Positions 27,640 to 57,583 of a stretch of DNA of 64,000 nt are shown here, piece by piece (within the stretch, counting starts at the first letter, position 1; the number at the start of each line of letters is the position of its first letter). This stretch comes from Acidobacteriota bacterium (GTDB lineage: Bacteria > Acidobacteriota > Terriglobia > Acidiferrales > UBA7541). The stretch spans positions 18,697 through 82,696 of the forward strand of contig JAJPIE010000029.1 of the NCBI GenBank assembly GCA_021324935.1, given 5' to 3'. The notes beneath the pieces were generated by a model. It ran no database searches, was not told where the DNA came from, and worked only from the letters and a program-made list of their open reading frames with translations. Position numbers and translations under genes: made by a program.

Positions 27640-27650
27640 TGGTTCTACCA
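27640..27650. promoter_or_regulatory. Candidate FadR-family operator
   Basis: TGGTTCTACCA matches TGGT-N3-ACCA in the divergent intergenic region 27572-27742. Confidence 0.45.
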
Positions 27651-27742
27651 CCTGACCTTTGCTCCGTCAATCTTTTTGGGCTATGCTCCCCTGTTTCGTT
27701 CTCCTCGAAGCTTAGTTCTATCCCGCGATCATTGGAGGTCCA

Positions 27743-28771
27743 ATGAAAAGTTCTTTATTCGCAGCTTCTGCAGCCCTGTTTTTCATGGCCGCGTCTGCTT
27801 GTTTGGCGGCTCAATCCAACGCGGCTCCAACTCCAGAGCGCCCTTTGGTTCTTACGGAGGCCATTCCAACGCCTGGCGTCCAAGGACGCTTTGATCATTT
27901 TGGCTTCGATGGCAAAAATCGCCTGTTTGTGGCCGCGCTTGGCAACAACTCGGTCGAAGTCATCGACATCAGTGCGCGCGTTCGCGACCGCTCGATCACA
28001 GGCATTCCGCGGCCGCAAGGAGTCGTCTACTCGCCCGAAGCAAAGAAACTGTTTGTGGCTAGCAGCCAGGGGCTTCTCCGCATTTTCGATGGCGCTTCCT
28101 ACAATCTGATCAAGGAGATCGATTTTCACGGCGACGTGGACAATCTCCGCTACGATTCCTCCACGCATCGCGTTTACGTTGGTTTCGGCGAGGACGAAAC
28201 CGGCGCCATCGGCATTGTCGACGCTCTCACCAACGAGCGGCTGCCCGAAGAATATATACTCGGCGCGCACCCGGAGTCTTTTCAGCTCGAATCGCAAGGA
28301 CCCAACATTTATGTGAATCTTCCCGATCTGAAGCAGATTGCCGTTATCAATCGCAAGACCGGCGCCATCACGCGCTGGCCCATGACGCTGGAACACAATT
28401 TTCCGATGGCCTTGGATGAAGCGGATCACCGGCTATTCGTCGTTACCCACGAACCCGCGCGTCTGGCCGTTTTTGACACTGCCTCTGGAAAAGCCATCGC
28501 TGAACTTGCTTGCGTGCAGGATGCCGATGATGTCTACTATGATGCCTCTCGAAAGCGTATTTACGTTTCCGGAGGAGAAGGCTACATCAGCGTGTTCCAG
28601 CAGTCCGACCCTGATCACTATGCGTTGCAAGCCAAGGTTCCCTCAACGCTCGGCGCACGCACTTCCGGCTATTTCGGGAAGGGGCAAAAGGGGTTCGACC
28701 GCTTTTTCATTGCCGTGCCGGCACGCGCGGATCACGGGGCAGAGATCTGGCTTTACACGGTCCAGGATTGA
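27743..28771 (+). CDS. YncE/YVTN-type beta-propeller secreted protein, second copy
   Basis: Signal peptide, GRFDHFG, RPQGVVY, HPESFQLE, DADDVYYD. RBS GGAGG. Confidence 0.85.
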   Translation: MKSSLFAASAALFFMAASACLAAQSNAAPTPERPLVLTEAIPTPGVQGRFDHFGFDGKNRLFVAALGNNSVEVIDISARVRDRSITGIPRPQGVVYSPEAKKLFVASSQGLLRIFDGASYNLIKEIDFHGDVDNLRYDSSTHRVYVGFGEDETGAIGIVDALTNERLPEEYILGAHPESFQLESQGPNIYVNLPDLKQIAVINRKTGAITRWPMTLEHNFPMALDEADHRLFVVTHEPARLAVFDTASGKAIAELACVQDADDVYYDASRKRIYVSGGEGYISVFQQSDPDHYALQAKVPSTLGARTSGYFGKGQKGFDRFFIAVPARADHGAEIWLYTVQD

Positions 28772-28904
28772 GACCGAAACTCCGGTGGAGCAAGATGTCT
28801 TCCGGGTGCCTGCCATTCAAGTCGACTGGACCTTGGAGATTTGGGGCAGGAGCACCGTCGATGATGCCAAACTCACACGGAAGAGCTTCACTTTCCACAG
28901 CTTA

Positions 28905-28919
28905 ATTGGTCAGTCCACA
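28905..28919. promoter_or_regulatory. Degenerate FadR/PdhR-type operator upstream of TonB receptor 2
   Basis: ATTGGTCAGTCCACA versus consensus ATTGGTC-N-GACCAAT. A promoter-like TTGACA (28984-28989), 18 bp, TACAGC lies downstream. Confidence 0.4.
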
Positions 28920-29071
28920 GTACCAATTCTTTTCCAAGGCTCTCGCTTATCACTTATTTTGCTTTGTAAAAGAAAGGAAATAGTTGACAATCTGCATCGT
29001 ATGATGGTACAGCGGCTATACCTATTGTGCGGGATTCTTCTCCCGAGCAGGGGATTTTACAGGGGTGTGTC

Positions 29072-32000
29072 ATGTTGAATTGTGTCAGTTTGAAAAAGTC
29101 CGTTGGGGTCATGGCTGTCTTCCTCGCGGTTCTTCTCTTCTCGCTCCCGGCCTTTCCTCAGGGCAACACCGGGCGCATCCTGGGCACGGTGACGGACCAG
29201 ACGGGTGGGTACATTGCAGGAGCAACGGTCACCGTCACCGACGTGGCGCGCGGCGTTACGCAAACGCTGACCACCGACGCGGATGGCGCATACGTCGCTA
29301 TAAACTTGATCGCGGGCACTTACACGGTGAAGGCGGAGTTCAAGGGTTTCAAGACCTTCGAACGGAAAAACGTCCTCGTGGAAGTCGGTAAGGACGTGCG
29401 CGTAGATCCCGTGCTGCAGACCGGCTCGCAGACGGAAACGATCACCATCACCGAAGAAGTCCCAATGGTCGACACCACTTCGACTACGCTCGGCGGTACG
29501 ATCAGCAACACGACTATCAATGAGATTCCCCTGAATGGCCGGAACTACCAGAACCTGCTGACGCTGCGTCCGGGCACAACGGTATATCCCGGTGGTGGCC
29601 CGTGGACGCAAACGACCAACGGCGCGCGCCCCGAAGACACCAGCTACCTGGTCGATGGATTGAGCAACGACGAATCGTTCATGGGCTTCAGCGTCACCAA
29701 TGCCGCTGCCGTCGCGGGCGATGCGGCCACGATCCTGCCCATCGACGCGATTCAGGAATTCAACACGCAGGTCAACCCGAAGGCGGAATTCGGCTGGAAA
29801 CCCGGCGCCATCACCAGCGTTGGTTTGAAGTCCGGCACGAACGAGATTCACGGTTCGGCTTATGCGTTCGGCCGCTCGGACGCTTTCGACGCCCGCAACT
29901 ACTTCAATCCTGTTGGCACTCCGCAGACGCCGGTGGAGCTCGAGCAGTACGGCGCGACGGCTGGCGGACGCTTCGTGAAAGACAAGGCTTTTTGGTTTGG
30001 CGGGTTTGAGAATCGCAATTACACCGTGGGGAATTCCATTCAGACGAATTCGCCGACCACAGTGTCGACGGGAAATCCAGCTATCAGTATTCCGGACGCA
30101 CTCGCCGGCCTTGCCGCACAAGGCGTACCCTTTAGCGCCCAGAGTCTTTACCTCCTTGGCTGCCCAGCCAACATCACAGCCCCGTACACTTCTTGCACAG
30201 GCGGGGCTTACGGTCCAAACGCTACGGGCGGCAAAACGCTAACTGGTGGATTCCCTGACGTAGATTCTTCGCGGAATGCTATCGGCAAAGTGGACTATCA
30301 CATCAATGAAAAGAACACGCTGAGCGGATCGTATTTCTTCGGGAACGACAACATCACCGCCGAGGATTCCCCTGAATTGCTTCCATCCTATGGCACAGTG
30401 ATCCACTCCCGGGCACAGGCTGCCGCAGGTCACTATGCATGGACTCCCAATGCTACGTGGGCGAATGACTTAAGAATCGGCTATACGCGCTATCATCTGA
30501 CAATCATTCCAGCGAACGTTGGCACATCGTATCAACTCAACACAGGCCTTGCCCCCGATGTTGTGTCTGTCGTTGGCGGGCTGCCCAACGTGCGCATCAA
30601 GGGTTTCACGGAACTTGGGGGATTCCACAATTTCCCAAAACTCGTCGGTCCGGACAACGTCTACGACTTTGTAGATCAGGTGTCTTACCTGAAAGGAAAG
30701 CATGCTTTCAAATTCGGCGGAGAGGCTCGCATCGATAAAGTTCTCCAGGGCACTTATCGCGGAGCCCGAGGGCGCATCGCGTTCAACGCGAACGGCCCCT
30801 TCAACGGCGCAACTCCTCTGGAAAGCTTCCTTGCTGGTATTCCAACCAATGCATCCATCCTGGCAGGCGATCCCATTCGTGACATGACGCAAAATCTGAT
30901 GGCGCTCTTCGCGCAGGACGACTGGCGCGTCTCTCGCAATGTCACCTTGAACCTGGGCGTTCGCTACGAACTGCAAGGCGTGCCGAGCGAAGCCAGCAAC
31001 CTGCTCGGAAACTGGGAACCGAACGTAGGCCTCGAACAGGTGGGCAAGAATATCGGCTCGCTCTACAAAAAGGATCCTACCAATTTTGCGCCGCGAGTCG
31101 GCGTCGCGTGGGATGTCACTGGAAACGGGACTACTGTGGTCCGTGCGGGTGCAAGCATCGTTTACGACCTTCTCTCCATGAGCACCTTCCTCTCGCAACA
31201 GGACACGAACAACACCGTTACCCTCGGTTCAAACGTGGTGCCGACCGGTGCCGCGATTCAGGTCAATGGCGTAACCACCCCGGGCATCGGCAATATCGTT
31301 GCCTCGGGTATCACCTTGCCAGCCTCTGAGCTGAACTGGAATGGCTCGTCAGTTGGGGGAGCAGGCATTTATCCTTCGAACCTGACCTCGCAGGTGGTGT
31401 GCGGGGACGGCAAGACGGTCAGCACCCCAACTGGTCCTGTCACTGACGCCGGTCCGTGCGACATTTTCGCGATGGATCGCAACTACAAGACTCCTTATGT
31501 AACGACCTGGACGCTGGGCATCCAGCATGCTTTTACCAACAAACTCTCGCTGGACGCCGCCTACGTCGGAAATCACGGCTCGCGGTTGACCGGTATTCAG
31601 GACTTAAACCAGCCCGCAGTTGGCTCCGGTTGGACGCCCGCTGCGATCGCCGCTGGCGCAGCCGATCCCAACGCGGAAGCCGCCGCACGGCCATACACCC
31701 TCAACGGGCAATACCCGTATCTGGGTTTCATCAACTACTACTCGAACATTTATCATTCAAACTACAACGGCCTGCAAATGACATTCACGGGCCGAAATTT
31801 CCATGGTCTTGACTTCGTCGCGGGCTATACCTATTCTCACGCCAACGACAACCAGTCCTACAACTGGAACCAATATCTGCCCCAAAACAGCGCTAGCCCG
31901 AACCTTGAATACGGTGCGAGCGACTTCGACATCCGTCACCGCTTCACACTTTCTGCCACGTACACGATTCCCGGCAAGAAGGGATACGGCCAGTTGCTGG

Positions 32001-32698
32001 AAGGATGGCAGGTCAACGGCATCTTGACGCTACAGACCGGCCAGCCGTGGCAAGCCTTTGACACCAGTAACGACTTCAGCGGCACCGGCGAATTTGCAGA
32101 TCGCTGGAACATTTATGGTTCACCCGCTAACTTCAAGTCCGGAGGCCAGGATTCCATCCCCCTCTGTGTGAACGGGGCTCCTGGCGGCTGCACTTATTCT
32201 AGTCCCGGCGGCACCGTGGCGCTCTCCAATCAGCAAACTGCTGCCGCTTGGACACAGTGTTTGGCATTCGCAAACGCAACTCCTGGCATGCTCTACTCCC
32301 TGAACACCGCCATTGCCGCGGGCACTGGCGGTTGCTACGTCAGTCGCAATGGAAAGTCGTTCCTGCTACCACCGGCAGTTGGAACGTTTGGCAATTCCGG
32401 CCGTAACATCTTCCGCGATACCGGCTTCCACAACTTGGACCTCTCGGTTTCCAAAAACTGGAAATTCTATGAGAGGCTGACGGTGCAATTCCGCGCCGAA
32501 TTCTTCAACATCACCAACCACCCGAACTTTGCGAACCCGTGGGGCGGCACGAGCGGCTTCGGCGCCGGCGCCACGGCCGATCCTTCCGTCGGTCCGTTTG
32601 GCTGCGGCTGCGCCACGCCGGACGTCGCGGCGGTCAACCCGGTGCTGGGCTCCGGCGGCATGCGGGCCATCCAGCTCGGCTTGAAGTTCCTGTTCTAA
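29072..32698 (+). CDS. TonB-dependent receptor (Oar-like, carboxypeptidase-regulatory N-domain)
   Basis: Signal peptide, GRILGTVTDQTG, IPLNGRNYQNLLTLRPG, PIDAIQEF, and C-terminal RAIQLGLKFLF. Likely ATG 29072. Confidence 0.92.
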   Translation: MLNCVSLKKSVGVMAVFLAVLLFSLPAFPQGNTGRILGTVTDQTGGYIAGATVTVTDVARGVTQTLTTDADGAYVAINLIAGTYTVKAEFKGFKTFERKNVLVEVGKDVRVDPVLQTGSQTETITITEEVPMVDTTSTTLGGTISNTTINEIPLNGRNYQNLLTLRPGTTVYPGGGPWTQTTNGARPEDTSYLVDGLSNDESFMGFSVTNAAAVAGDAATILPIDAIQEFNTQVNPKAEFGWKPGAITSVGLKSGTNEIHGSAYAFGRSDAFDARNYFNPVGTPQTPVELEQYGATAGGRFVKDKAFWFGGFENRNYTVGNSIQTNSPTTVSTGNPAISIPDALAGLAAQGVPFSAQSLYLLGCPANITAPYTSCTGGAYGPNATGGKTLTGGFPDVDSSRNAIGKVDYHINEKNTLSGSYFFGNDNITAEDSPELLPSYGTVIHSRAQAAAGHYAWTPNATWANDLRIGYTRYHLTIIPANVGTSYQLNTGLAPDVVSVVGGLPNVRIKGFTELGGFHNFPKLVGPDNVYDFVDQVSYLKGKHAFKFGGEARIDKVLQGTYRGARGRIAFNANGPFNGATPLESFLAGIPTNASILAGDPIRDMTQNLMALFAQDDWRVSRNVTLNLGVRYELQGVPSEASNLLGNWEPNVGLEQVGKNIGSLYKKDPTNFAPRVGVAWDVTGNGTTVVRAGASIVYDLLSMSTFLSQQDTNNTVTLGSNVVPTGAAIQVNGVTTPGIGNIVASGITLPASELNWNGSSVGGAGIYPSNLTSQVVCGDGKTVSTPTGPVTDAGPCDIFAMDRNYKTPYVTTWTLGIQHAFTNKLSLDAAYVGNHGSRLTGIQDLNQPAVGSGWTPAAIAAGAADPNAEAAARPYTLNGQYPYLGFINYYSNIYHSNYNGLQMTFTGRNFHGLDFVAGYTYSHANDNQSYNWNQYLPQNSASPNLEYGASDFDIRHRFTLSATYTIPGKKGYGQLLEGWQVNGILTLQTGQPWQAFDTSNDFSGTGEFADRWNIYGSPANFKSGGQDSIPLCVNGAPGGCTYSSPGGTVALSNQQTAAAWTQCLAFANATPGMLYSLNTAIAAGTGGCYVSRNGKSFLLPPAVGTFGNSGRNIFRDTGFHNLDLSVSKNWKFYERLTVQFRAEFFNITNHPNFANPWGGTSGFGAGATADPSVGPFGCGCATPDVAAVNPVLGSGGMRAIQLGLKFLF

Positions 32699-32724
32699 TT
32701 CACGCTTGAAGTCTGAGCTTTCCC

Positions 32725-32756
32725 GGGGCCGGACTTGTTCCGGCCCCTTCTTTTTT
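32725..32756 (+). terminator. Rho-independent terminator
   Basis: GGGGCCGGA / TCCGGCCCC stem plus TTCTTTTTT. Confidence 0.8.
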
Positions 32757-32806
32757 CGCGGTCGTACGGCAAGGCAAATTAAATCTGCGATGGAAAGGAC
32801 TTATGC

Positions 32807-33673
32807 GTGATGCGTGCCCGGACCAGAAAGTCTCTAGCTGTTGCAATCGTTTGTGTGTGTTTGTTAATCCCGTTTGCGGCAAGAAAAGCGAACGCCGCGG
32901 AAAGTGATTCCGCCGTTCTGCAGGCCGACCGGAAATTTGTGCAAGCCGCGGCGCTGGCGAATGCCTCGCTGCTGCATAAATACCTGGACGATGACTTTAC
33001 GTGGACCGACGCGGAAGGAAAAACGCTGACCGCCGCGGAAGTATTGCAGGCCGTTCCCAAACCGACGCTCGGCGACGAAAGTGGCATTGACGTCGCGGAA
33101 CGCACCTATGGCCAGGTCGGCGCCGTCTCAGCCAGCAAGGGCAAAATGCATGTCCTGCGGTTGTGGGTGCAGCGGCCCGGAGGCTGGAGATTGCTTGTCT
33201 ATCATGAGGTGAAACAGCTCGACGAGCCATCGAACGTGAAGGGCACGGGTGTGGCTGAATGCGAAAATCCCTGCAAGAGCGTGCCCTTCCAGCCTGCAAA
33301 CGCGGACGAAGCCGCGATCATCGCCTCCTGGCAAGCATTGGAAACGGCGGTAACACACCACGAGGCGGAAAATTGGGCCCCGCATATTGCCGACGAATTC
33401 GTGCAGATCAGTTCAAACAGCGACCACCCGATTTCCAAAGCCGGCCGCATGGAAACGCTGAATAAGCAGAAGCAAAGCGGCGTCGGCTCCGCGCCGTCTC
33501 CGCTGGTTTCCGCGAAGATGTTCGACTTTGGCGATGCGGTGATTATGACTTGTCTGCACCAGCCGCACACCGGCAAACCGGTGCACGTGAGCCGTTTGTG
33601 GATCAAGCGCGACGGCAAGTGGGTGATGTCCATCAGCTATCAGACAACCATTCAAGCGGGAGAGGCGAAGTAG
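32807..33673 (+). CDS. Secreted tandem DUF4440 (NTF2/SnoaL-like) protein, paralog 1
   Basis: Signal peptide, two NTF2-like repeats (LDDDFTWTDAEGKTLT; IADEFVQISS...HVSRLWIKRDGKW), and linker CENPCK. Confidence 0.8.
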   Translation: MMRARTRKSLAVAIVCVCLLIPFAARKANAAESDSAVLQADRKFVQAAALANASLLHKYLDDDFTWTDAEGKTLTAAEVLQAVPKPTLGDESGIDVAERTYGQVGAVSASKGKMHVLRLWVQRPGGWRLLVYHEVKQLDEPSNVKGTGVAECENPCKSVPFQPANADEAAIIASWQALETAVTHHEAENWAPHIADEFVQISSNSDHPISKAGRMETLNKQKQSGVGSAPSPLVSAKMFDFGDAVIMTCLHQPHTGKPVHVSRLWIKRDGKWVMSISYQTTIQAGEAK

Positions 33674-33750
33674 TTTCAATCTGGCAAAACTTTCGAATAG
33701 ACTCCGCCGTTCGAACGATTTGCCAATGTTCCGCGAGAAACATTCTCAAT

Positions 33751-34605
33751 ATGTTGCACTCTAGTTATCACAATCTCAAAATTTGCGTAAAAGTCGGCGC
33801 GCCGACATTGCTCTTGCTGGCCTTCTGCCTCGCGTTCGCCGGGACTGCGGCGGCAAGCGGCGCCGACATTTTGCTGCAAACCGATCGCACACTGATTGAA
33901 GCGTTCCAACAGAAGCAAGAGGCCGCCGCGGAAGCGCTGCTTTCGCCCAATCTTGCATGGATCGATTCCGCGGGCAGGCGGTTCACCCGCGCCGATGCCC
34001 TGAAAACCTTTCCGATGATCGCAAACGCCGATGTGAAACCCAGTGCTCGGATCTATGGCGATTCCGCGGTTCTATTCGCCAACCAGGGCAAAATGAACGT
34101 TCTGCGAGTGTGGTCGAAATCGCCGCAAGGCTGGAAACTGCTTCTCTATCAGGAAGTCCAGCAGGTGGAAAAGTCGGAACCGGCCAACAGCCCGCTTTTG
34201 GGCGAATGCGTAAATCCGTGCAAGGAAATCCCCTTTTCGCCGGCGACGGCTTCGGAAAAAGCCGCCATCGCTTCCTGGCAGGGCGTCATGAAGGCCATGG
34301 CGGAAAACGACGTGTCGGCGTATGCACCGCTGATCGCGGATGAATTCACGGCGACGGATACATTTCATGAACGGCCGTATACAAAAGCGGATCGACTCGC
34401 GCAAATTGAGAAGCAAAAGGCGTCCGGCAAACATAACGCCCCGCCGGAATTGGCCTCCGCGGACATGTACGATCTTGGGGAAACTGTACTGATGATTGCG
34501 AGGGAACAGCGGCGCGGCAGCAACGACTATTTCAATTCAAGGATGTGGGCGCTGCGCGATGGACGCTGGCAGATGCTCTTCAGTTTCAACACACGCATCG
34601 GCTAA
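33751..34605 (+). CDS. Secreted tandem DUF4440 protein, paralog 2
   Basis: LSPNLAWIDSAG, linker CVNPCK, IADEFTATD, WALRDGRWQ. Start uncertain: ATG 33751 chosen, ORF open from 33550. Confidence 0.75.
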   Translation: MLHSSYHNLKICVKVGAPTLLLLAFCLAFAGTAAASGADILLQTDRTLIEAFQQKQEAAAEALLSPNLAWIDSAGRRFTRADALKTFPMIANADVKPSARIYGDSAVLFANQGKMNVLRVWSKSPQGWKLLLYQEVQQVEKSEPANSPLLGECVNPCKEIPFSPATASEKAAIASWQGVMKAMAENDVSAYAPLIADEFTATDTFHERPYTKADRLAQIEKQKASGKHNAPPELASADMYDLGETVLMIAREQRRGSNDYFNSRMWALRDGRWQMLFSFNTRIG

Positions 34606-34678: not shown

Positions 34679-35845
34679 CTACGCGCTTTGGTAAAGCTTG
34701 GTCATCACGAACTCTCGATGCCCCAGAGCTTCCGCGCAAGTGAGCCGGCCATTACAGGTACGCAGCGTGATGTCGATCAGGCGGTCGCCCGCCTCATCGA
34801 GAGTCATCTCGCGCCGCAAGAGACCGGAGACATCGAGATCAATGTGCTCGCTCATGGTGCGCGCCGTTTTCGGGTTGGCGGTCAGCTTGATCACTGGCTC
34901 GATCGGATTGCCGATGACGTTGCCTTGCCCCGTGGGAAACAGGTGAACGACGAAGCCGGCCGCGGCCTGCAAGGTCACGCACTCCGCCGCAGCCGAGGAA
35001 GTATCCATGTAATAGAGGCCTGGGCCCTTGGCTGGCGGTTCCGCTGGTTTCAGAACGTCGATGAATTTCGTCTTCTTGCCGATTTTCTGGAAATTGCCGA
35101 AGGCTTTTTCTTCGATGGTGGTTAAACCGCCCGCAATGTTTCCTTTGGTGGGCTGCGATTCAGAAAGATCGCTGGTCTTGTGGCGCTCGATCACGTCCTG
35201 ATACGCGCGGAAGACCTGGAGGAACTTCTCGCCCACTTCTTTCGTGGCCGCGCGGCTGGCACAGACCATTTCCGCGCCGGTGAGTTCCGAGGTCTCGCCG
35301 AAGCAAGTGGTTGCACCGAGCGGATCGAGCTTATCGATCAGGTTTCCAACGGTAGGGCAAGAGCCGAGTCCCGAGGTGGTGTCGCTCTCGCCGCATTTGG
35401 TGGAAACAAACAAATCCTTAATGGAGCAAAGTTCGCGCTGCTTCTCGGTGGCCCACTGAACGAACTCGCGCGCCTTGCGCGAAGCGTTGGCAATCGTGGT
35501 GATGTCGCCGTTGCCCTCGATCGAAAAACCCGCCACCGGCTTTCCGGTTTTGGCGATCCCGTCCACGATGCGGCTGGTCCAGCCGGGTTCGATGCCGATC
35601 ACCACACAAGCGGCAACGTTGGGGTTGCACCCCGTGCCGATCAACGTGCGAAAGTGCAACTCCAGGTCCTCGCCGAACTGCAGGCGCCCGTAGGCGTGCG
35701 GCAATGCGAGCGTGCCCTTGATGTTGTTGGCCACGGCTTCGCAAGCCGCATTGGACAAGTCATCCAAAGGCAGAATCACCACGTGATTGCGAATGCCAAT
35801 TCTTCCGTTCTCCCGCTTGTATCCGTAAAAATCGTAGCGTCCCAT
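34679..35845 (-). CDS. suyB: UxaA-family hydro-lyase, (2R)-sulfolactate sulfo-lyase beta subunit-like
   Basis: [68 protein letters not shown] and C-terminal [14 protein letters not shown] closely resemble SuyB as I recall it. Confidence 0.75.
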
Positions 35846-35848
35846 CGC

Positions 35849-36133
35849 TCACCACCTTTTCGTTTTCATGTTGTGGACATGCACGTGATGCCCCTTGCCG
35901 ATTTCCGCGATGGCGCGGCCCACATCGTGGCCGTATTTGAGGATGGTGTCGCCGGGACGAATGTCGTTGAGGGCGATTTTGTGGCCCAGCGGCACCGGGT
36001 CGAGGGATTTGAGGGAGATAGTTTCATCCGTCTCCATGATCCAGCCGTTCAAGTCCGCGCCGGCTGGCACGTCTTCCACAACCATGACGCCGACGGTGTC
36101 GGCTTTGTCGTGCACAATAAAATGCGTGATCAT
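35849..36133 (-). CDS. suyA: SAF-domain alpha subunit of UxaA/SuyAB lyase
   Basis: FIVHDKADTVGV...GWIM...PLGHKIAL...KYGHDVG...HVHVHNMKTKRW. Confidence 0.75.
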   Translation of the reverse strand: MITHFIVHDKADTVGVMVVEDVPAGADLNGWIMETDETISLKSLDPVPLGHKIALNDIRPGDTILKYGHDVGRAIAEIGKGHHVHVHNMKTKRW

Positions 36134-49043: not shown

Positions 49044-50038
49044 AAACGGCCGAAGAAGCCATAAAGACGGAAGCGGCAGTTTCCCCAGAATTGGGAATCC
49101 GGCTGTACCGGCAGATGGTACGGATTCGCCTCTTCGAAGAACAGGTGAACGAGCTTTATATGCGCGCGCTGATGCCAGGCCTTGCGCACCTGTATATCGG
49201 CGAGGAAGCCATCGCGGTGGGTCTCTGCGAGGCACTGAAAAAGACGGACTACATCACCAGCACGCACCGCGGCCACGGGCATTGCCTGGCCAAGGGAGCC
49301 GAGCCCGACCGCATGTTCGCGGAGCTTTTGGGGAAGGAAGCCGGCTATTGTCGGGGCAAAGGCGGCTCGATGCACATCGCGGACCCGGCAACGGGAAATC
49401 TCGGAGCTAACGCCATTGTTTGCGGCAGTGCGGGAATTGCAACAGGCGCCGCGCTTACGGCGAAGCGATTGAAGCAGGATAATGTGTCGGTTTGCTTTTT
49501 TGGCGAGGGCGCGCTCGGCCAGGGAGTCCTCTACGAAGTGATGAATCTGGCGACACTTTTCAAGCTGCCGGTGATCTACGTCTGTGAAAACAATTTCTAC
49601 ACCGAATACACGCACTACACGGAGACGACGGCGGGCGACATCCTGACCCGCGGCACGGCGTTCGGCGTGCATTCCGAGAGCGTGGACGGGCAGGACGTGC
49701 GCGCGGTTTACGCCGCCGCGAACCGGCTCGTCAGCCGCGCGCGGCGTGGCGAAGGCCCCGCCTTCCTCGTAGCCAACACGTATCGCTACACGGGCCACCA
49801 CGTTGGCGATATCAACCGAGAATACTACCGCTCCAAGCAGGAAGAGCAGGAGTGGAAGACAAAGCGGGATCCCATCAAGAACATGGGCGAATGGCTGGTG
49901 AGCCAGAAGATCACCGATGCCGCCGCGCTAAAAAAAATCGAGGACGAAGTCCGGCAGGAGATGAAGGCAGCGGTCGAGTTTGCGATCGCCGCGCCGTATC
50001 CCTCCGTGGAGGAGGTCGATCAGGACGTTTATGCCTGA
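49040..50038 (+). CDS. ThDP-dependent 2-oxoacid/acetoin dehydrogenase E1 alpha
   Basis: HLYIGEEA, STHRGHGH, GKGGSMH, GEGA...CENN, TYRYTGH. Confidence 0.9.
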   Translation: MKTAEEAIKTEAAVSPELGIRLYRQMVRIRLFEEQVNELYMRALMPGLAHLYIGEEAIAVGLCEALKKTDYITSTHRGHGHCLAKGAEPDRMFAELLGKEAGYCRGKGGSMHIADPATGNLGANAIVCGSAGIATGAALTAKRLKQDNVSVCFFGEGALGQGVLYEVMNLATLFKLPVIYVCENNFYTEYTHYTETTAGDILTRGTAFGVHSESVDGQDVRAVYAAANRLVSRARRGEGPAFLVANTYRYTGHHVGDINREYYRSKQEEQEWKTKRDPIKNMGEWLVSQKITDAAALKKIEDEVRQEMKAAVEFAIAAPYPSVEEVDQDVYA

Positions 50039-51026
50039 AACAGCCCAGCGGGAACTAACATTTGCCCAAGCCATCCGGGAAGCGCTTGCGGAAGAGATGT
50101 GGCGCGATCCGCGCGTGTGCATCTTCGGAGAAGACGTTGCGGAAGCTGGCACGCCATTCAAAGTTCTGTCCGGATTGGTGGAGGAGTTTGGAGCCGAACG
50201 CGTGTTGGACACGCCGATTTCCGAACAGGGTTTCACCGGAATGGGCGTGGGCGCGGCAATGACCGGCCTGCGGCCAGTGGTGGATATCATGTTCGGCGAT
50301 TTTCTGACGCTGACGATGGACCAACTGGTGAACCAGGCGGCGAAGGTCCACTACATGTCCGGGGGAACATGGAAAGTGCCGATGGTGTTGCGCACCACGC
50401 TGGGAGCGACACGCCGTTCCGCGGCGCAACATTCGCAGTCCCTGCATGCCTGGCTTTGCCATGTGCCGGGTTTGAAGGTCGCCATGCCTTCCACGCCGTA
50501 TGATGCGAAGGGCCTGCTGAAAACAGCGATCCGCGACGACAATCCGGTGATCTTTTTCGAAGACAAAATGATGTACAAGCAAAAAGGCCGCGTGCCAGCC
50601 GAAGATTACACGATTCCCTTTGGCGTGGCGGACGTTAAACGCGAAGGTGAAGACATTACGCTGGTGGCCACCAGCAGCATGGTGGATGTCGCCCTGGGCG
50701 CCGCGAAACTCCTGGAGGGCATTGGCGTAAGCGCGGAAGTGATTGATCCACGGACGATGTGGCCGCTGGACGAGAAGACCTTGGTGGAATCCGCAAAGAA
50801 GACCTCGCGCGCGATCGTGATTGACGAGGGCTACGGCCGCTATGGCGTGACCGGTGAAGTTGCCTCCGTAATCGCCGAAGGCGCATTCTTCAATCTCGAG
50901 GCACCGGTCAAGCGCATGGGTGCGATGCACGTGCCAATTCCATTTTCGCCGCCGCTGGAAGACGTCACCGTGCCAACCGAGCAGACGGTCTTCGAAGCGG
51001 CGCGCAAACTGTGCGGCAAAGCCTGA
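50031..51026 (+). CDS. 2-oxoacid/acetoin dehydrogenase E1 beta
   Basis: GEDVA, DTPISEQG, DIMFGDF, AAQHSQ, EVIDPRT. ATG 50031. Confidence 0.92.
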   Translation: MPETAQRELTFAQAIREALAEEMWRDPRVCIFGEDVAEAGTPFKVLSGLVEEFGAERVLDTPISEQGFTGMGVGAAMTGLRPVVDIMFGDFLTLTMDQLVNQAAKVHYMSGGTWKVPMVLRTTLGATRRSAAQHSQSLHAWLCHVPGLKVAMPSTPYDAKGLLKTAIRDDNPVIFFEDKMMYKQKGRVPAEDYTIPFGVADVKREGEDITLVATSSMVDVALGAAKLLEGIGVSAEVIDPRTMWPLDEKTLVESAKKTSRAIVIDEGYGRYGVTGEVASVIAEGAFFNLEAPVKRMGAMHVPIPFSPPLEDVTVPTEQTVFEAARKLCGKA

Positions 51027-51051
51027 ACAGTATTTCCTGAGGAGGCGTATC

Positions 51052-52395
51052 GTGGCAATCAAAACATACGGCCCGATGGCCGTGGATTGGGAAAATCGCA
51101 TCGATTTTGACCGCCTGCGCCGCGAGCGGCTGGCGAAGGCGAAGGCACTGCTCGCAAAGTCTGAAATGGGCGCGTTGCTCTGCTTCGACATGAACAACGT
51201 GCGGTATCTCACCGCAACCCACATCGGCACATGGGCGCAGGACAAGATCAGCCGTTTTTGCCTGCTGCCGCAAAATGACGAACCGATTCTGTGGGACTTC
51301 GGTTCAGCCGCCCGCCACCACCAGCAAAATTGCCCGTGGCTTGGCGAGCGCTCCCGCGCCGGCATCCCCCTGCTCCGGGGCGCGATGTCTCCGGAAATGG
51401 GGCGCGCGGAGAATGTGGCGCGCAAAATCAAGGTGGAACTTGAGAAGAGGGGCTTGCTCAACGAGCCTCTGGGCATCGACGTGGTCGAGCCGCCAATTCT
51501 GTTCGCGCTGCAACGCGAAGGCATTAAGATCGTCGACGGGCAGCAATTGATGTCCGACGCACGGGTGATCAAAACGCAGGACGAAATTTCCCTGCTGACA
51601 CACTCGGCAATGATGGTGGACGCGGCGTACGACGAACTCTATCGCGCCATGAAGCCGGGTTTCACGGAAAACCAGGCAGTGGGCCTGGCCAGCAAGGTCT
51701 TGTACGACCTTGGCTCGGAATACGTGGAGGCGGTGAACGCGATTTCCGGCGAACGCTGCAACCCGCACCCGCACGTCTTCAGCGACCGCGTACTGCGCCC
51801 GGGCGATCCGGTTTACTACGACATCCTGCATTCCTACATGGGCTACCGCACGTGCTATTACCGGTGCTTCACGATCGGTTATGCATCGCACGCGATGGTC
51901 GACGCTTACAAGCGCTGCCGCGATTATCTGGATGCCGCGATCGAGCTGGTGCGGCCTGGCCGCACCACGGCGGAAATCGCTTCCGTATGGCCGAAGGCGC
52001 AAGAGTTCGGCTTTCCGGACGAAGAGGCGGCCTTCGCGCTGCAATTCGGGCACGGCATCGGCCTGGCGATCTGGGAAAAGCCGGTGATCAGCCGCATGGT
52101 CTCGCTGGAGCACTCGCACGAGATCAAGCCGGGAATGGTGTTTGCGCTGGAGACGTTCTGGCCTTCAAAGGACGGCTGGAGCGCGGCGCGCATCGAGGAA
52201 GAGATCGTGGTGACCGAAACGGGTCACGAAGTAATCACGCGCTTCCCCGCTGACCAGCTCATGGTCGCAGGCGCGCATTACTTCACCGTGGACGGTCCGT
52301 TGCCCACGACGCGCGAGAACGAAGCGCCACCAAGCGTCGCGGTTCAAGAGCTGGTGGCCGGGGCAAAGCGTGAAGGCGTGGCGGCTACCGATTGA
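51052..52395 (+). CDS. M24 (creatinase/prolidase-fold) amidohydrolase of unknown specificity
   Basis: N-terminal creatinase domain, KTQDEI, FGHGIGL, ALET, RIEE. GTG 51052 with RBS GGAGG. Confidence 0.85.
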   Translation: MAIKTYGPMAVDWENRIDFDRLRRERLAKAKALLAKSEMGALLCFDMNNVRYLTATHIGTWAQDKISRFCLLPQNDEPILWDFGSAARHHQQNCPWLGERSRAGIPLLRGAMSPEMGRAENVARKIKVELEKRGLLNEPLGIDVVEPPILFALQREGIKIVDGQQLMSDARVIKTQDEISLLTHSAMMVDAAYDELYRAMKPGFTENQAVGLASKVLYDLGSEYVEAVNAISGERCNPHPHVFSDRVLRPGDPVYYDILHSYMGYRTCYYRCFTIGYASHAMVDAYKRCRDYLDAAIELVRPGRTTAEIASVWPKAQEFGFPDEEAAFALQFGHGIGLAIWEKPVISRMVSLEHSHEIKPGMVFALETFWPSKDGWSAARIEEEIVVTETGHEVITRFPADQLMVAGAHYFTVDGPLPTTRENEAPPSVAVQELVAGAKREGVAATD

Positions 52396-52426
52396 TTTAC
52401 TGAAATTTGCATCCTAGGAAAGAACA

Positions 52427-53614
52427 ATGGCTATCAGTGTGGTGATGCCTGCGCTCGAAATGGCGCAGGAAAACGGTAAATTACTCGCCTGGCGCAAAAA
52501 GGAAGGCGAGAGCGTCACAAAAGGCGAACCGCTGCTGGAAGTGGAAACAGACAAGGCGGTCGTCGAAGTGGAAGCGCCGGGTGACGGAATCCTTGCGGGA
52601 ATCACCGCCCAAGTCGGCGCGGTGATTCCAGTTGGGGAGACAATCGCGTGGCTAGTGGCACCCGGTGAGCAACCCCCGGCAAAGGCGGCCACTGCGGCGC
52701 CCGGGGCGCGCGCCACGAGCGCGGCTGCATCGGCAGCGGCGGCTCCAACAGCGGCAAAAACTTCGGCCGAGCCGGTAGCTATTCAGATTTCTCCGAAGGC
52801 ACGGCGTTTGGCGAAAGAACTTGGCGTGGATATTGGCCAGATTCGGGGCACCGGCCCGGACGGCACGATCACTTCCGACGATGTGCAAGCCGCGGCGAGC
52901 GCCAAGGCTTCTGGTGGCGCGACAGCGGCTCCAGCGGCGGCAGAGCCCCTCAGCCAATTGGCGCGCCTGATGGCCGAGCGCACCACGCAAAGCTGGACCA
53001 CGGTGCCCCACTTTTTCCTGCAACAATCCGTCGACGCAAGCGCATTGCAGACATATCAAAAGAAACTCAGTGTGGGCAGCGCGCCGGGAACCTCGCCAAC
53101 GATCACGGATGTGCTGATCGCTTTGATTGCCAGGTCGCTCGAGAAGCACCCCAAGTTGAACGCAAGTTGGACCGGAGACGGAATCCGGCTGAATGCAGAC
53201 ATCAACATCAGTGTCGCGATGGCCGTGAAAGACGGCGTCGTCAGCGCTGTGATTCCCAATGCGAACCGAACGCCGCTGGCAACTCTCTCCACGCTGCGGC
53301 GCGAGCTGACCCAGCGTGCCCGCAGCGGCCGGCTGCGGCCCGCAGACATCACCGGCGGCACCTTCACGCTGAGCAACCTGGGCATGTACAAGATTGACGC
53401 GTTCACCGCGATCATCACGCCGCCGCAATGCGCGATTCTCGCCGTTGGCGCGATCGCAGACGCCGTGGTTCCCGTCGATGGCAACATTGGCGTCCGGCCG
53501 ATGCTGACCATGACGCTTTCGAGCGATCACCGGGTGGTGGACGGAGCGCGCGCCGCCGAATTTCTGGGCGAACTGGCCGTGGCCATTCGCGAACCGGAGA
53601 AGTGGCTGAAATAA
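52427..53614 (+). CDS. Dihydrolipoamide acyltransferase E2
   Basis: Lipoyl domain EVETDKA, E3-binding [12 protein letters not shown]...GTGPDG, catalytic SDHRVVDG. Confidence 0.93.
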
Positions 53615-53681
53615 AGCTTTCGCAAGCTATTCCTGGAGAGGGGATCAGAGCGCCGGCCACTTTGTGCGTCCGGCCCGAACC

Positions 53682-54953
53682 ATGACCAAGCCCAGCGGAA
53701 ACAGCAGGTCTCTGTATGCAAACCCCACAGCCCAGGTTTTGTTTGCCGTCGCCGCGGCGATTGTCCTCGGCTATTTGCATCCCCCCGCAGCCATCGCGAT
53801 GAAGCCGCTAGGCGACGGATTCATCCGCCTGATCACGATGATCATCACGCTGATCATTTTCTGCACCGTGGTGACCGGCATTGCGGGCATGGAAGATATG
53901 AAAAAGGTTGGGCGAGTTGGCGGAAAAGCGCTGATCTATTTCGAAGTGGTCTCCACAGTTGCGCTGCTCATCGGATTTATCATTGGCAATGTCACCAAGC
54001 CCGGCGGAGGCATGAACATCAATCCCGCCACGCTCGACGCCAAGGCCGTAGCGGAATACGCCGGCGCGGCGAAATCGCAAAATGTTCCGGATTTCATCAT
54101 GCACATCATCCCCACCTCGGTGGTGGATGCCTTCGCAAAGGGCGACATTTTGCAAGTGATGCTGATTTCGGTCCTCTTCGGCTTTGCGTTGTCCGCGGTT
54201 GGGCCGCGCTGCAAACCGCTGGTGGATCTGTTCGACGCGCTTACACATGCGGTTTTTGGAGTCGTGCGCATAGTGATGAAGCTTGCGCCGCTCGGAGCGT
54301 TTGGCGCGATGGCCTTCACCGTGGGAAAGTTCGGGCTGGCGTCGCTGGGACCTTTGCTAAAACTGATCGCCATTTTCTATCTGACTTCCCTGCTCTTTGT
54401 TCTGCTCGTTTTAGGAATCATCTGCCGTCTGTGCGGATTCGGGATTTTGCGATTTTTGCGGTACATCAAGGATGAAATTGTGCTGGTGTTGGCGGTAAGT
54501 TCTTCGGAGCCGGCCATGCCGACGCTGATGGAGAAGCTTGAAAAATTGGGCTGTTCCAAGGCGCTGGTCGGGTTAATCGTGCCCACGGGCTACACATTCA
54601 ACACGGACGGCACCGGAATTTACATGACCCTCGCGGCACTGTTTGTGGCGCAGGCGACCGGAACGCAATTGACACTGATGCAACAACTGACCATTCTCGC
54701 GGTTGCCGTGCTGACCTCGAAGGGAGCGAGCGGCGTGCAGGGGGCTTCCTTCATCGCGTTGGTGGGAACGCTGATGGTGATTCCGTCCATCCCAGTCGCC
54801 GGAATGGCGATCATTCTTGGAATCGACCGCTTTATGAGCATGTGCCGTGCCACGGTAAACATGATCGGGAACGGCGTGGCCACCGTGGTGGTGTCGCGAT
54901 GGGAACGCGAATTGGACGGAGCGACGTTACAAAAAAATCTGGCCGCGCAGTGA
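53682..54953 (+). CDS. dctA: Dicarboxylate symporter DctA, copy 2
   Basis: [36 protein letters not shown]. Confidence 0.9.
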
Positions 54954-54980
54954 AACTACCGCAGTTGATGGGGGGAACGC

Positions 54981-56555
54981 ATGCCAGAACAATTTGATTT
55001 TGTGGTGGCGGGCGCGGGGCACAACAGCCTGATTACGGCGGCATACCTGGCGAAGGCGGGGTACCGCTGCCTGGTGTTGGAAGGACGCCCGATCGTGGGC
55101 GGCGGCGTGAAATCCGCTCACCTGACGTTGAAAGGATTCGTCCATGATGTGTGCTCCTCGGCGCACAACGGAATCCACGGCAACCCCCTGCTGCGGAACA
55201 ATGAATTGAATCTCGGCGAATACGGTCTGGAGTACATCTATCCCGATCCAGTGTTTCACATGCCGTTTCCCGACGGCTCTTACCTCACGCAATGGCGCGA
55301 CCTGGACCGTACGTGCGCGGAATTCGCCAAATTTTCAAAAAAAGACGGCGAGGCGTATCGCCGCATGATCGCGGAATATGAATCCGTTAGCCCGCTTCTG
55401 GGGCAGATAAGCTTCTCGCCCGTCGGTTTCGGCAAACCGTTGAATGAACTTCTCGCCGCACATCCACAGGGAAAGATCTGGCAGCGGCGCCTGGCGATGT
55501 CCGCGTGGGAAATCATTTCCGAGACCTTCGAGGACGCTCACTGCCGCGCGTTCATGCTGGGTTGCCCGTATTCGCTGCAACCCGTGCTGGACCCGGCCAC
55601 CGCTCGCGCCGCCTACATTCCACTGCACCAGCAACGCGAGAGCCGCCCCTTGCCAAAGGGCGGATCGGGGGAGTTGACTGCGGCTTTGGCCCGCGTGATC
55701 GAGGCCCACCAGGGGACGATTCTGGTCAACAAATGGGTGAACGCACTGATCATCGAGAATGGACGCTGCGTGGGAGTGGAATGCTCGGATGGCAGCAAGT
55801 ACCGCGCGGATAAAGCGGTGGTTTCCACCATCCACATCAAGCAACTTGTCGACATGGCGCCGGCTGAGCTTTGGGGCGAGGACTTTCTGGATGGCGTGAA
55901 AACCTGGGAGGCCGGGCTGACGCTGTTCGCCGCGAACTACGCCACTACGGAACCTCCCAAATACAAAGTGGACGGCGGCGAACTTTCGCCGGTCCATTCC
56001 GGACTGATGGTCAGCCCGGAACGCGCGATGCAGATGACGGTAGACTACCGCAGCGGCAATGCAAATACCGAAGATCCTTCCCTTCACGTAATCTGCTGCA
56101 GCGTTGCCGACCCGACCCGCGCACCAGCCGGGATGCACACCATCAAAATCGTGGCGTACCATCCCTATCAACTAAAGGAAGGCCCTGCGCATTGGGACGT
56201 AATCAAGGAACAAGTGGCCCAGGCCAATCTGAAATTCCTGCGGCGCTTCTCTCCCAACCTGACCGACGACAAAATTCTGGCGCATACGGTGGAGACCCCA
56301 CTCGATCTGGAGCGAATGAATCCGCACAATTGGCACGGGAGTTGCCACGCCGGCGGATCTGGTCCTTCGCAGGTGGGAGCGATGCGCCCGATGCCGGGCT
56401 ACGCGCAGCACCGTATGCCGATTCCAGGACTCTATCAAACGGGGGCGACGACGCATCCAGGCGGCTCGGTGACCGGTGGGCCGGGGCGCAATGCCGCCGT
56501 TGTGATACTCAAGGATCTCGGCACCAGCATCGAAGCGGTGGTTCACAAAGCTTGA
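54981..56555 (+). CDS. FAD-dependent oxidoreductase, phytoene desaturase-like (COG1233), paralog 1
   Basis: VVAGAGHNSL...LE.RP.VGG, PKGGSG.L, PIPGLYQTGATTHPGGSVTG.PGRNAA. Confidence 0.88.
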   Translation: MPEQFDFVVAGAGHNSLITAAYLAKAGYRCLVLEGRPIVGGGVKSAHLTLKGFVHDVCSSAHNGIHGNPLLRNNELNLGEYGLEYIYPDPVFHMPFPDGSYLTQWRDLDRTCAEFAKFSKKDGEAYRRMIAEYESVSPLLGQISFSPVGFGKPLNELLAAHPQGKIWQRRLAMSAWEIISETFEDAHCRAFMLGCPYSLQPVLDPATARAAYIPLHQQRESRPLPKGGSGELTAALARVIEAHQGTILVNKWVNALIIENGRCVGVECSDGSKYRADKAVVSTIHIKQLVDMAPAELWGEDFLDGVKTWEAGLTLFAANYATTEPPKYKVDGGELSPVHSGLMVSPERAMQMTVDYRSGNANTEDPSLHVICCSVADPTRAPAGMHTIKIVAYHPYQLKEGPAHWDVIKEQVAQANLKFLRRFSPNLTDDKILAHTVETPLDLERMNPHNWHGSCHAGGSGPSQVGAMRPMPGYAQHRMPIPGLYQTGATTHPGGSVTGGPGRNAAVVILKDLGTSIEAVVHKA

Positions 56556-56637
56556 AAAGCCCGAAACTTGCAGGCGGTTTTGAGCGCCTCTTGCCGGCCC
56601 CCCACAATCGTTTTTCGGATGCGCGGAAACGGAGAAG

Positions 56638-56656
56638 GCGGCAGCCGGGCTGCCGC
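56638..56656. terminator. Hairpin between convergent genes
   Basis: GCGGCAGC-CGG-GCTGCCGC. Confidence 0.45.
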
Positions 56657-56667
56657 ACTGCAAACAA

Positions 56668-57543
56668 TTATTCCACCCAGGTTTGCTGGCCGAACGCGAT
56701 CTGCCAGTGCCCTTCGTGTTTTTCAAACAAGCGCGTGACGTGCAGGATTTTCCCGTGCCGCGGCTTGTGCTCGGAGCGCATCACCGCCGCGTCTCCAAAC
56801 ACCCAGATCTTCATGGACAATACTTCCGCAGGGATCAGTGTCGTGTTGGTCCGGCGAAGTTCCTTGATCATGGCCACGCGGTCGGCTTTGTTGAGAGGAG
56901 TGCCACCGTCGGGCGTTACGAAAAGAAAATCGTCGGTAAAATTCGGAATCCACGCTTCGACGTCGTTCGTTAAAACTGTCCGCTCCACCGCCTGCCACAT
57001 CGTTGCCACTTCCTGTTCATCGGGCGTATCTGCCTTGAACGGCATCGTCTTGCAGGGATTTTCGCAATGCACCGGCTCGCCGTTGCTGGGAGCGCCAAAA
57101 CCCGCGCGCTTTTCCGGATTCTTTTCCGCCTTGTTTGTCTCCTGATAAATGAGCAGTTGCCAGGCTGCGGGACGCTTGACCCATACCCGGACGAAGCGCA
57201 CGTTCACATCCTGCGAAGGAAGAAAATGGGAACCGCGCACCAACACCACCGTGCCGGCATCCATCAATTGCACATCCGAGTCGTGCCCCGTTGAGAGAGA
57301 AGAGAGCTCGGAGAGATATTCCACCTTGGTCATCGTCATGCCCTTGCGGTCCGTGCCAGCGAAATCGGGATCCAGGAGTTTTGCGAGCGCCGCGCGATCC
57401 GCATCGTGGAACGCGGCAGTGAAGGCGCGATCAATCTTCATGACTTCGTCCCGGGAACTTGCAGCGAGTACGGGGAGCGAGAGGGCGCACAGCGTGAAAA
57501 GCAGGCACACCAGAGTTAGGAGAGATCGAACAGGATAGCGCAT
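56668..57543 (-). CDS. Secreted tandem DUF4440 protein, paralog 3
   Basis: Signal peptide MRYPVRSLLTLVCLLFTLCALSLPVLA, LDPDFAGTD, linker CENPCK, FTDDFLFV, HVTRLFEKHEGHWQ. Confidence 0.82.
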   Translation of the reverse strand: MRYPVRSLLTLVCLLFTLCALSLPVLAASSRDEVMKIDRAFTAAFHDADRAALAKLLDPDFAGTDRKGMTMTKVEYLSELSSLSTGHDSDVQLMDAGTVVLVRGSHFLPSQDVNVRFVRVWVKRPAAWQLLIYQETNKAEKNPEKRAGFGAPSNGEPVHCENPCKTMPFKADTPDEQEVATMWQAVERTVLTNDVEAWIPNFTDDFLFVTPDGGTPLNKADRVAMIKELRRTNTTLIPAEVLSMKIWVFGDAAVMRSEHKPRHGKILHVTRLFEKHEGHWQIAFGQQTWVE

Positions 57544-57568
57544 GAGGGCCTCCCGGAGGCTGCTGGCA

Positions 57569-57583
57569 ATTGGTCGGACCAAT
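57569..57583. promoter_or_regulatory. FadR/PdhR-type operator (perfect palindrome)
   Basis: ATTGGTC-G-GACCAAT in the divergent intergenic region 57544-57796. Confidence 0.8.

Follow-up and report, generated by a model that had tools for sequence, protein, structure and literature searches.

We analysed a stretch of 64,000 nucleotides (nt) from Acidobacteriota bacterium (assembly GCA_021324935.1, contig JAJPIE010000029.1), here called the window, in which palindromes of the type TGGT-N3-ACCA lie in front of several operons and a regulator of the FadR subfamily (GntR plus FCD domain) is encoded at 47415-48110. An initial annotation of this DNA had listed five such sites and placed the operons behind them under that regulator. 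The sites exist and are far more common than chance would predict; their positions are conserved, as is their register with the promoters. Judged from the sequences, they are probably the operators of the 47415-encoded protein, and the operons concerned would make up one repressor-controlled catabolic regulon.

Genes and palindromes of the window

Proteins were identified with Pfam, the curated cut-offs of NCBIfam and sequence comparison with PDB entries. The genes concerned are the following:

24488-25192, minus strand: FAA-hydrolase-family protein, in the divergent hydrolase operon 24488-27571 (Pfam)
25211-25612, minus strand: cupin, divergent hydrolase operon (Pfam)
25609-26493, minus strand: HIBADH paralog, divergent hydrolase operon (Pfam)
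26549-27571, minus strand: S9/DLH-type hydrolase, divergent hydrolase operon (Pfam)
27743-28771, plus strand: exported YVTN-type beta-propeller, here bprop (weak propeller match in Pfam; PDB 1l0q, YncE)
29072-34605, plus strand: acidobacterial-type TonB-dependent receptor (CarboxypepD_reg and OMP_b-brl_4), then two DUF4440 proteins (Pfam)
41719-45580, minus strand: FrsA-like esterase, NMT1-like binding protein and LVIVD-repeat protein (Pfam, gene starts)
45897-47261, plus strand: aldehyde dehydrogenase (ALDH; Pfam)
47415-56555, plus strand: eight-gene operon (Pfam, NCBIfam, gene starts) in the order GntR/FCD regulator, HIBADH-like dehydrogenase, E1 alpha, E1 beta, M24, E2, DctA-type transporter, COG1233a
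47415-48110, plus strand: GntR/FCD regulator, first gene of the eight-gene operon
56668-57543, minus strand: exported double-DUF4440 protein (Pfam; start codon and signal peptide read)
57797-64000, plus strand, running past the window: COG1233b, COG1233c, multihaem cytochrome c, 2Fe-2S subunit and molybdopterin-binding large subunit (Pfam)

The candidate operators and the promoters proposed for them are:

27640-27650, both directions: operator TGGTTCTACCA, exact core, between the hydrolase operon and bprop
28905-28919, no strand assigned: distal operator of the TonB-receptor promoter, ATTGGTCAGTCCACA, with the core TGGTCAGTCCA at 28907-28917
28984-29023, plus strand: TonB-receptor promoter TTGACA (28984)-N18-TACAGC (29008-29013) and proximal operator GGCTATACC (29014-29022)
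45712-45750, minus strand: LVIVD promoter TTGACA (45750-45745)-N18-TACAGG (45726-45721) and GGTCCTACC (45720-45712)
45789-45830, plus strand: ALDH promoter TTGTCT-N18-TATATT (45789-45818) and operator ATTGGTCAGACCAAT (45816-45830)
47275-47313, plus strand: regulator promoter TTGCAA-N17-TAATGT (47298-47303) and operator TGGTCTGACAA (47303-47313), a putative autoregulatory site
57569-57583, no strand assigned: perfect operator ATTGGTCGGACCAAT, 26 nt upstream of the double-DUF4440 start codon
57647-57686, plus strand: COG1233b promoter TTGACG-N18-CACAGT (57671-57676) and half-degenerate proximal operator TAACCAGACCG (57676-57686)

Two perfect palindromes of 15 base pairs (bp) had been reported, and both are present: ATTGGTCAGACCAAT at 45816-45830 and ATTGGTCGGACCAAT at 57569-57583. 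They are the only exact matches of the pattern ATTGGTCNGACCAAT in the window, with 0.00 expected from 100 dinucleotide-preserving shuffles. The core TGGTNNNACCA occurs three times (27640, 45818 and 57571), with 0.5 expected. The three weaker sites were likewise found as listed (TGGTCTGACAA at 47303, TGGTTCTACCA at 27640 and ATTGGTCAGTCCACA at 28905), and all five are indeed intergenic, in a window of which intergenic DNA makes up 8.6%. The published PdhR box reads (A)ATTGGTnnnACCAAT(T) with a tight core GGTnnnACC (PMC7660256) and the consensus of the FadR subfamily is TKGT-N3-ACMA (PMC4494728), in agreement with what the initial annotation had taken as established. Both perfect palindromes are exact instances of the 15-bp PdhR box.

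Relaxed searches of the window remained at chance level. TTGGTN3ACCAA with two mismatches gave 20 matches where 19 were expected, GGTN3ACC was intergenic in 4 of 18 matches (P = 0.06), and the scores of TGGTCTGACAA (47303) and ATTGGTCAGTCCACA (28905) alone did not exceed chance. The score by itself therefore lends nothing to the weak sites, and it is conservation that supports them. When a weight matrix trained exclusively on the sites of other genomes was run over the window, its top five matches were exactly the five listed sites.

Conservation of the sites in related genomes

Related loci were collected in two ways. Scanning one genome per species gave 80 loci with an ortholog of the regulator (72-95% identity), all from Acidobacteriota-type metagenome-assembled genomes, and a metagenome scan with the bprop protein as query returned 80 further loci (L081-L160). 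The resulting 160 loci, referred to by L numbers, comprise 1.9 Mb. Random 300-nt windows of the same loci served as background for the site counts; 1.6% of them contained an exact core and 9% a core with at most one mismatch.

The exact core occurs 147 times in these 1.9 Mb, almost always at one of a handful of orthologous intergenic positions. The initial annotation had made its reading depend on the presence of the sites at orthologous promoters, and across the 160 loci all five were kept at the orthologous position, each as an island of conservation in otherwise diverged intergenic DNA. Operator core columns are conserved to 94-95%, compared with 46-54% in the flanking intergenic columns; at the regulator promoter the values are 95% for the core and 54% downstream of it. 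Upstream of the ALDH gene the exact core was found in 38 of 49 loci and a core with at most one mismatch in 47, and GGGTATA(G/T)TGGTnnnACCAA is the sole conserved block in 32 aligned ALDH upstream regions. Upstream of the regulator the counts are 25 (exact) and 67 (at most one mismatch) of 80 loci. Close relatives keep TTGCG-N17-TGGTAnnTTGGTCnGACAACTCGACCA at the regulator promoter, which means that the seemingly imperfect ACAA half-site of the window is itself conserved. The 57569 site is kept in all ten loci that share the DUF4440/COG1233b spacer as well as in L013 and L031, neither of which has a DUF4440 gene there, and shows at most one mismatch in 13/13 loci with a COG1233b promoter.

In the loci found with bprop, most of which show the order HIBADH and S9-type hydrolase genes on the minus strand, site, bprop on the plus strand, the 27640 site, (T)GTGGTTCTACCAC(C), was found unchanged in 46 of the 71 orthologous loci and is again a conserved island. 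At the 28905 position we found perfect palindromes of the ATTGGTCAGACCAAT or ATTGGTCATACCAAT type in 12 loci and one-mismatch sites in 33, of which 21 read TGGTCnGTCCA. A site with at most one mismatch is present at the bprop or the receptor position in 69 of 71 loci, and where a good bprop site is lacking (two or more mismatches, 20 loci) the receptor site has at most one mismatch in 18 and is exact in 11. Such complementary sites are the turnover pattern expected of a functional site. The TonB receptor had been proposed merely as a possible target. Its case is strengthened by the perfect palindromes upstream of the receptor in 12 relatives and by distant genomes (L033-L080), where an operon of the TonB receptor and the FrsA-like esterase runs divergently from the regulator with the regulator's own operator in between. 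The targets assigned with more confidence (ALDH and the E1/M24/E2, LVIVD and COG1233/cytochrome/molybdenum operons) all carry conserved sites, through which the 47415 protein would bind and control them. Since the sites are kept at the same places in well over 100 related genomes, the operons very probably form one repressor-controlled regulon.

Gene order around the sites is less constant. The core GntR-HIBADH-E1 alpha-E1 beta-M24-E2 is found in all loci long enough to show it. In L025, L032 and L067 the COG1233c-cytochrome-2Fe2S-molybdenum genes follow directly on the last gene of the E1/E2 operon, L031 has the COG1233b operon right in front of the regulator, and in L024 the receptor and DUF4440 genes abut the FrsA gene without the sugar-acid cluster that is inserted in the window. 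That synteny varies while the sites persist supports a functional link among the modules, and the rearrangements of the COG1233/cytochrome/molybdenum genes are independent evidence that the modules work together.

Two promoter designs

The candidate operators are arranged in two ways. In the first (type 1) the first T of TGGT is at the same time the last base of the -10 hexamer, with the junctions TATATT/GGTCAGACC at the ALDH gene, TAATGT/GGTCTGACA at the regulator and GATTAT/GGTTCTACC at bprop. The 45816 palindrome had been said to overlap a -10 box, which fits the predicted promoter TTGTCT-N18-TATATT, and the 47303 site, placed at the -10 of the regulator gene, does begin on the last base of the -10-like hexamer TAATGT. 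The 27640 site lies upstream of bprop, where on the plus strand it follows TTGAAT (27611)-N18-GATTAT (27635). The earlier description needs one addition here: the same site also holds the -10 of a conserved minus-strand promoter, TTGACG (reverse complement of 27665-27670)-N17-TAGAAC (reverse complement of 27642-27647), which faces the divergent hydrolase operon. With a type 1 operator starting on the final base of the -10 hexamer, a bound repressor would cover the -10 box and the transcription start; this would apply to the ALDH gene, the regulator operon, the hydrolase operon and bprop.

Among the proposed promoters a strict sigma-70 scan found that of the ALDH gene only, and none in the 57569 spacer or in 27540-29120, where we placed promoters by conserved hexamers and spacing in the alignments. 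The TGGTA upstream of the operator was considered as a third half-site of a NanR-like direct repeat and rejected, an extended -10 box being the simpler explanation. In a subset of the relatives (L016-L030) a second palindrome, TGGTACGGCGGTCGTACCA (which includes GGTCGTACC), lies about 50 nt upstream of the start codon of the regulator; it is not found in the window.

In the second design (type 2), shared by the LVIVD, COG1233b-cytochrome-molybdenum and TonB-receptor operons, a conserved promoter of the form TTGAC(A/G)-N18-(TGG)yACAGn carries only a degenerate GGnnnnACC in the corresponding place, and the canonical operator lies 105-107 bp upstream, about ten helical turns away. The degenerate proximal elements are GGTCCTACC (LVIVD), AACCAGACC (COG1233b) and GGCTATACC (TonB receptor), and the three control regions of the window can be aligned over their whole length. 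At the TonB-receptor promoter CGTATGATGGTACAGCGGCTATACCTATT is nearly invariant in about 60 loci, and the 28905 site lies 106 bp upstream of GGCTATACC, a spacing of 104-107 bp being kept in 37 of 40 loci. The LVIVD element, GGTnnnACC(C/G)(C/G)TGTACCA, is present in 34 loci, and in 31 of these its distance to the ALDH operator is 106-109 bp. The LVIVD operon had rightly been named as a target, but its own operator at 45712-45720 was absent from the earlier list. Similarly, the COG1233b operon holds as a target, but the 57569 palindrome is not on its promoter: ATTGGTCGGACCAAT lies 105 bp upstream of the proximal element, a spacing kept in 13/13 loci. The promoter block with this element is conserved in relatives, and in L018 the element reads TGGTCCTACCT, a near-canonical site.

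A comparable arrangement is known from Atu1419 of Agrobacterium fabrum, a tetrameric FCD repressor of the VanR group whose palindrome overlaps -10 boxes; at one target it binds two sites, a perfect palindrome and a degenerate one, at a distance of 109 bp, and electron microscopy showed it looping promoter DNA with two palindromes separated by 190 bp (PMC7797058). A strong and a degenerate palindrome about 100-200 bp apart at a promoter are found three times in the window, with distances of 105-107 bp. The Atu1419 motif, ATGTATACAT (10 bp), and its FCD subgroup differ from those considered here, and whereas its looping was seen directly, a loop in the window is suggested by the conserved spacing. 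We propose that the strong distal and weak proximal sites would be occupied cooperatively, probably with formation of a DNA loop.

Alternatively, only the type 1 promoters may be repressed, with the distal palindrome of type 2 acting independently of the proximal element, either as an activating site or as an operator for a second or divergent promoter, and with no loop. The 45816 and 57569 sites can be read as fused to -10-like hexamers of the divergent ALDH and double-DUF4440 genes, the proximal elements match poorly, and three LVIVD/ALDH pairs are out of phase. Against this stand the TonB receptor, where the 104-107 bp spacing exists without any divergent gene, the persistence of the spacing in L013 and L031 although neither carries a DUF4440 gene, the collinearity of the three control regions throughout, and the documented FCD repressor with a perfect and a degenerate palindrome 109 bp apart (PMC7797058). 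We regard independent distal sites as possible, though rather doubtful.

Some further features were observed at the COG1233b promoter. Between its distal operator and the -35 lies an A/T-rich block (57611-57636; compare 28950-28983 and 45751-45790), whose sequence, TATCATATTTTTGAATGGGTTACAAC, is nearly invariant in relatives and contains a near match to the IHF consensus, WATCAR-N4-TTR. Compared by eye with the matching stretch upstream of the TonB receptor, the sequence up to the -35 agrees at 29 of 43 positions. The block may be a bending site that aids a short loop, or an UP element. The leader (57677-57796) contains a conserved long-range stem, GCGGGCyTGTT...AAGCAGGCCCG (57721-57733 / 57760-57772), in which 7 of 14 predicted pairs show a compensatory change in at least one of 10 relatives, and a short hairpin with a T-run at 57713-57725 was flagged as terminator-like. 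Rfam gave no match to the stem and no family at its gathering score in any part of the window. The stem may act as an attenuator or have a stabilising role. A sigma-54 reading of GGTGGCACAGTAACCAGACC (57666-57685) was rejected, as its -12 reads CCAG and not TTGC, in the window as in relatives.

The regulator and its putative regulon

The regulator carries a GntR domain (PF00392, E = 5.8e-25, residues 16-79) and an FCD domain (PF07729, E = 3.5e-34, residues 105-225), numbered on the translation of 237 amino acids from the open reading frame starting at GTG 47397. It aligns over its full length with the structures of PdhR (9jpj, E = 3e-24), DgoR (7c7e) and NanR (6on4), its best solved relatives, and the Asp/His residues of the FCD pocket align with those of DgoR and NanR. 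All NCBIfam scores are below the cut-offs: 154.7/260 for NanR (NF003011), 132/311 for LldR, 128.9/330 for PdhR (NF007001) and 103/301 for GlcC. This places the regulator in the NanR/LldR/PdhR/GlcC clade of the FadR subfamily as an ortholog of none of them. It is PdhR-like, but the curated cut-offs do not make it an ortholog of PdhR. In 80 orthologs the recognition helix GVSRTAVREAVK and the wing GRGTF show at least 95% invariance, in keeping with the constant GGT/ACC core of the sites. The protein, the presumed binder, has the GntR and FCD domains of the FadR subfamily, and the sites match the TKGT-N3-ACMA inverted repeat. They are unlike the direct GGTATA repeats bound by NanR (PMC4494728).

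Real operators could also be bound by another FadR-subfamily protein (a paralog of PdhR, LldR or GlcC type, or the second GntR/FCD protein of the window at 36174-36926), with the 47415 gene only a target. The motif is common to many FadR-subfamily proteins (PMC4494728), the roughly 64 kb of visible genome encode two of them, and both have an SRT recognition helix. However, the site precedes the 47415 ortholog in 67 of 80 genomes, whatever the gene context. The 36174-36926 protein is only 30% identical to the 47415 protein and has no TGGT-N3-ACCA near its own promoter, and its operon is not at that position in L024, yet the sites remain. We therefore rejected this second protein as the binder and consider any other rival binder unlikely. 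That GGT-N3-ACC instead serves one particular sigma factor, as part of the promoter or of the initially transcribed region, as suggested by its always abutting a -10-like hexamer and by several -10 regions reading TGGTA, is very improbable for a true inverted repeat with a free 3-nt spacer that also occurs 105 bp from promoters (at 28905 and 57569), matches published FadR/PdhR operators base for base and is accompanied in every locus by a gene for a cognate-type regulator.

Several observations weigh against a single regulon under the 47415 protein. TGGT-N3-ACCA is generic for the FadR subfamily, so that the actual binder could be a paralog from another part of the genome. The 27640 site differs from the others in having an invariant spacer as well, and could belong to a different factor. 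The proximal elements of type 2 miss 3-4 of the 8 fixed bases of TGGT-N3-ACCA (3 in GGCTATACC, 4 in TAACCAGACCG) and may therefore remain unbound; a duplicated promoter cassette, not looping, could account for the 105-107 bp spacing, and three of the 34 LVIVD/ALDH pairs are spaced at 88, 89 or 99 bp. The promoter hexamers are consensus guesses in a phylum whose promoters are poorly characterised, no public RNA run containing 45000-49000 could be listed, and binding and transcription starts are predicted from sequence. As no NCBIfam ortholog cut-off is reached, the effector cannot be transferred from a characterised relative.

Operators of the 47415 protein nevertheless appear to us the probable reading. 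Most likely the regulator works as a dimeric repressor of its targets, and a small carboxylate effector would bind the FCD domain and release it from the DNA. As first gene of the E1 alpha/beta-E2 operon with a putative operator at its own promoter, it would autoregulate its eight-gene operon. About 30 genes, behind at least seven promoters, would come under one signal: an outer-membrane receptor, exported hydrolases and propellers, periplasmic flavoprotein/molybdenum/cytochrome oxidoreductases, a C4-dicarboxylate-type transporter, the ALDH, and PDH-like E1/E2 with an embedded DddP-like M24 protein.

NanR, LldR, GlcC and DgoR are FadR-subfamily repressors of sugar-acid and hydroxy-acid catabolism. 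The window regulator shares with them the domain architecture and the organisation as a putative local repressor of a catabolic and transport locus; it differs from NanR, LldR and GlcC in scoring far below all family cut-offs and, from NanR, in its inverted repeats. The E. coli pdhR-aceEF-lpd system offers another parallel, with PdhR box sites, a GntR plus FCD protein and the regulator first in an E1/E2 operon; to its operators at its own and at dispersed promoters would correspond the putative operators of the window. In contrast to E. coli, the organism is an acidobacterium, the PdhR score is 129 bits against a cut-off of 330, E1 is a heterodimer of alpha and beta, there is no E3 gene, HIBADH-like, M24, DctA and COG1233 genes are added, and the targets are an outer-membrane receptor and exported enzymes, not respiratory genes. 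A palindrome conserved upstream of orthologous operons beside the regulator also characterises the regulons of Suvorova et al. 2015, a survey whose taxa table does not include Acidobacteria (PMC4494728). A local regulon of the FadR subfamily is a well-known kind; in the literature searched we found none described in Acidobacteriota, and no description of this regulon, orthologous group or target set.

The genes themselves give partial hints of a pathway. E1 beta passes an NCBIfam cut-off for a PDH subfamily, while E1 alpha (346/394 bits) and E2 (287/445 bits) fall below theirs, and the eight-gene operon has no lpd/E3 gene and contains additional embedded genes. The gene labels need care here: the E2 gene is at 52427-53614, and 41719-42960 encodes the FrsA-like esterase. 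The ALDH resembles succinate-semialdehyde dehydrogenase (NF006915, 688 bits, just under the cut-off of 730). In the LVIVD operon genes overlap by 4 bases; its LVIVD-repeat protein has a twin-arginine signal, as has COG1233c. Structure-sequence searches aimed at the pathway gave generic or distant matches: the M24 protein matched DddP (E = 2e-21), the COG1233 proteins phytoene desaturase, with only a distant likeness to CrtO/phytoene desaturases, and the LVIVD protein nothing.

We tentatively propose a new catabolic route, widespread in soil and peat Acidobacteriota (Acidoferrales/Sulfotelmatobacter-like), in which a substrate would be taken up through a dedicated TonB receptor, processed by exported esterases, beta-propellers and the flavoprotein/molybdenum/multihaem-cytochrome module, and finished by M24 and the PDH-like E1/E2, with a PdhR-like repressor that would switch the entire set and, at three promoters, loop about 105 bp between a strong and a weak operator. 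We infer such a single pathway with reserve, and this combined picture may well prove wrong.

No protein of the cluster is more conserved than the M24 protein (51076-52395; 82-96% identity), whose gene lies between those for E1 beta and E2; a 2-oxoacid dehydrogenase operon is an unusual place for an M24 enzyme. Among solved structures it comes closest to the DddP lyases of dimethylsulfoniopropionate (DMSP; 4s00 and 4b28), which it matches over the full length at about 25-30% identity; it scores far below the DddP family cut-off (119/600 bits). The cupin at 25211-25612 is a borderline match to cupin DMSP lyases (PF16867, 26.8 bits, cut-off 27). Together with the two HIBADH-type dehydrogenases and the ALDH, the cupin and the M24 protein faintly recall acrylate/3-hydroxypropionate-type routes, which we treat as a lead only. 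Three exported DUF4440 (SnoaL-like) proteins stand at the ends of regulon operons (32807-34605 and 56668-57543), and the family is recurrently linked to the TonB receptor in the window and in relatives.

Two neighbouring groups of genes were also noted. An unrelated sugar-acid-type cluster with its own GntR/FCD regulator (34679-41667, mixed strands; regulator at 36174-36926) splits the regulon in the window and in close relatives and is not at that position in L024. It encodes a galactarate/altronate-dehydratase-like enzyme, a GFO oxidoreductase, a creatininase-family protein, a cupin, a 2-hydroxyacid dehydrogenase and a second DctA-type transporter. Upstream of the regulon, a HAMP/HisKA histidine kinase and an OmpR-type response regulator are encoded at 19786-22006 on the minus strand, with no TGGT-N3-ACCA site near them.

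Acidobacteriota are among the most abundant soil bacteria, and to our knowledge almost nothing is known about their gene regulation. The present analysis offers a concrete regulon that can be tested, comprising one regulator and about 30 genes behind at least seven promoters, whose candidate operators are kept in more than 100 metagenome-assembled genomes, and it provides first promoter and operator templates that can be used for reading acidobacterial promoters. The conserved architecture of paired operators adds some mechanistic interest, since strong and weak sites in pairs would be a natural set for studying loop-mediated repression by FCD proteins. Function by association would tie the LVIVD, DUF4440, COG1233 and DddP-like M24 proteins to one signal, and the identity of the inducer would probably reveal the substrate.

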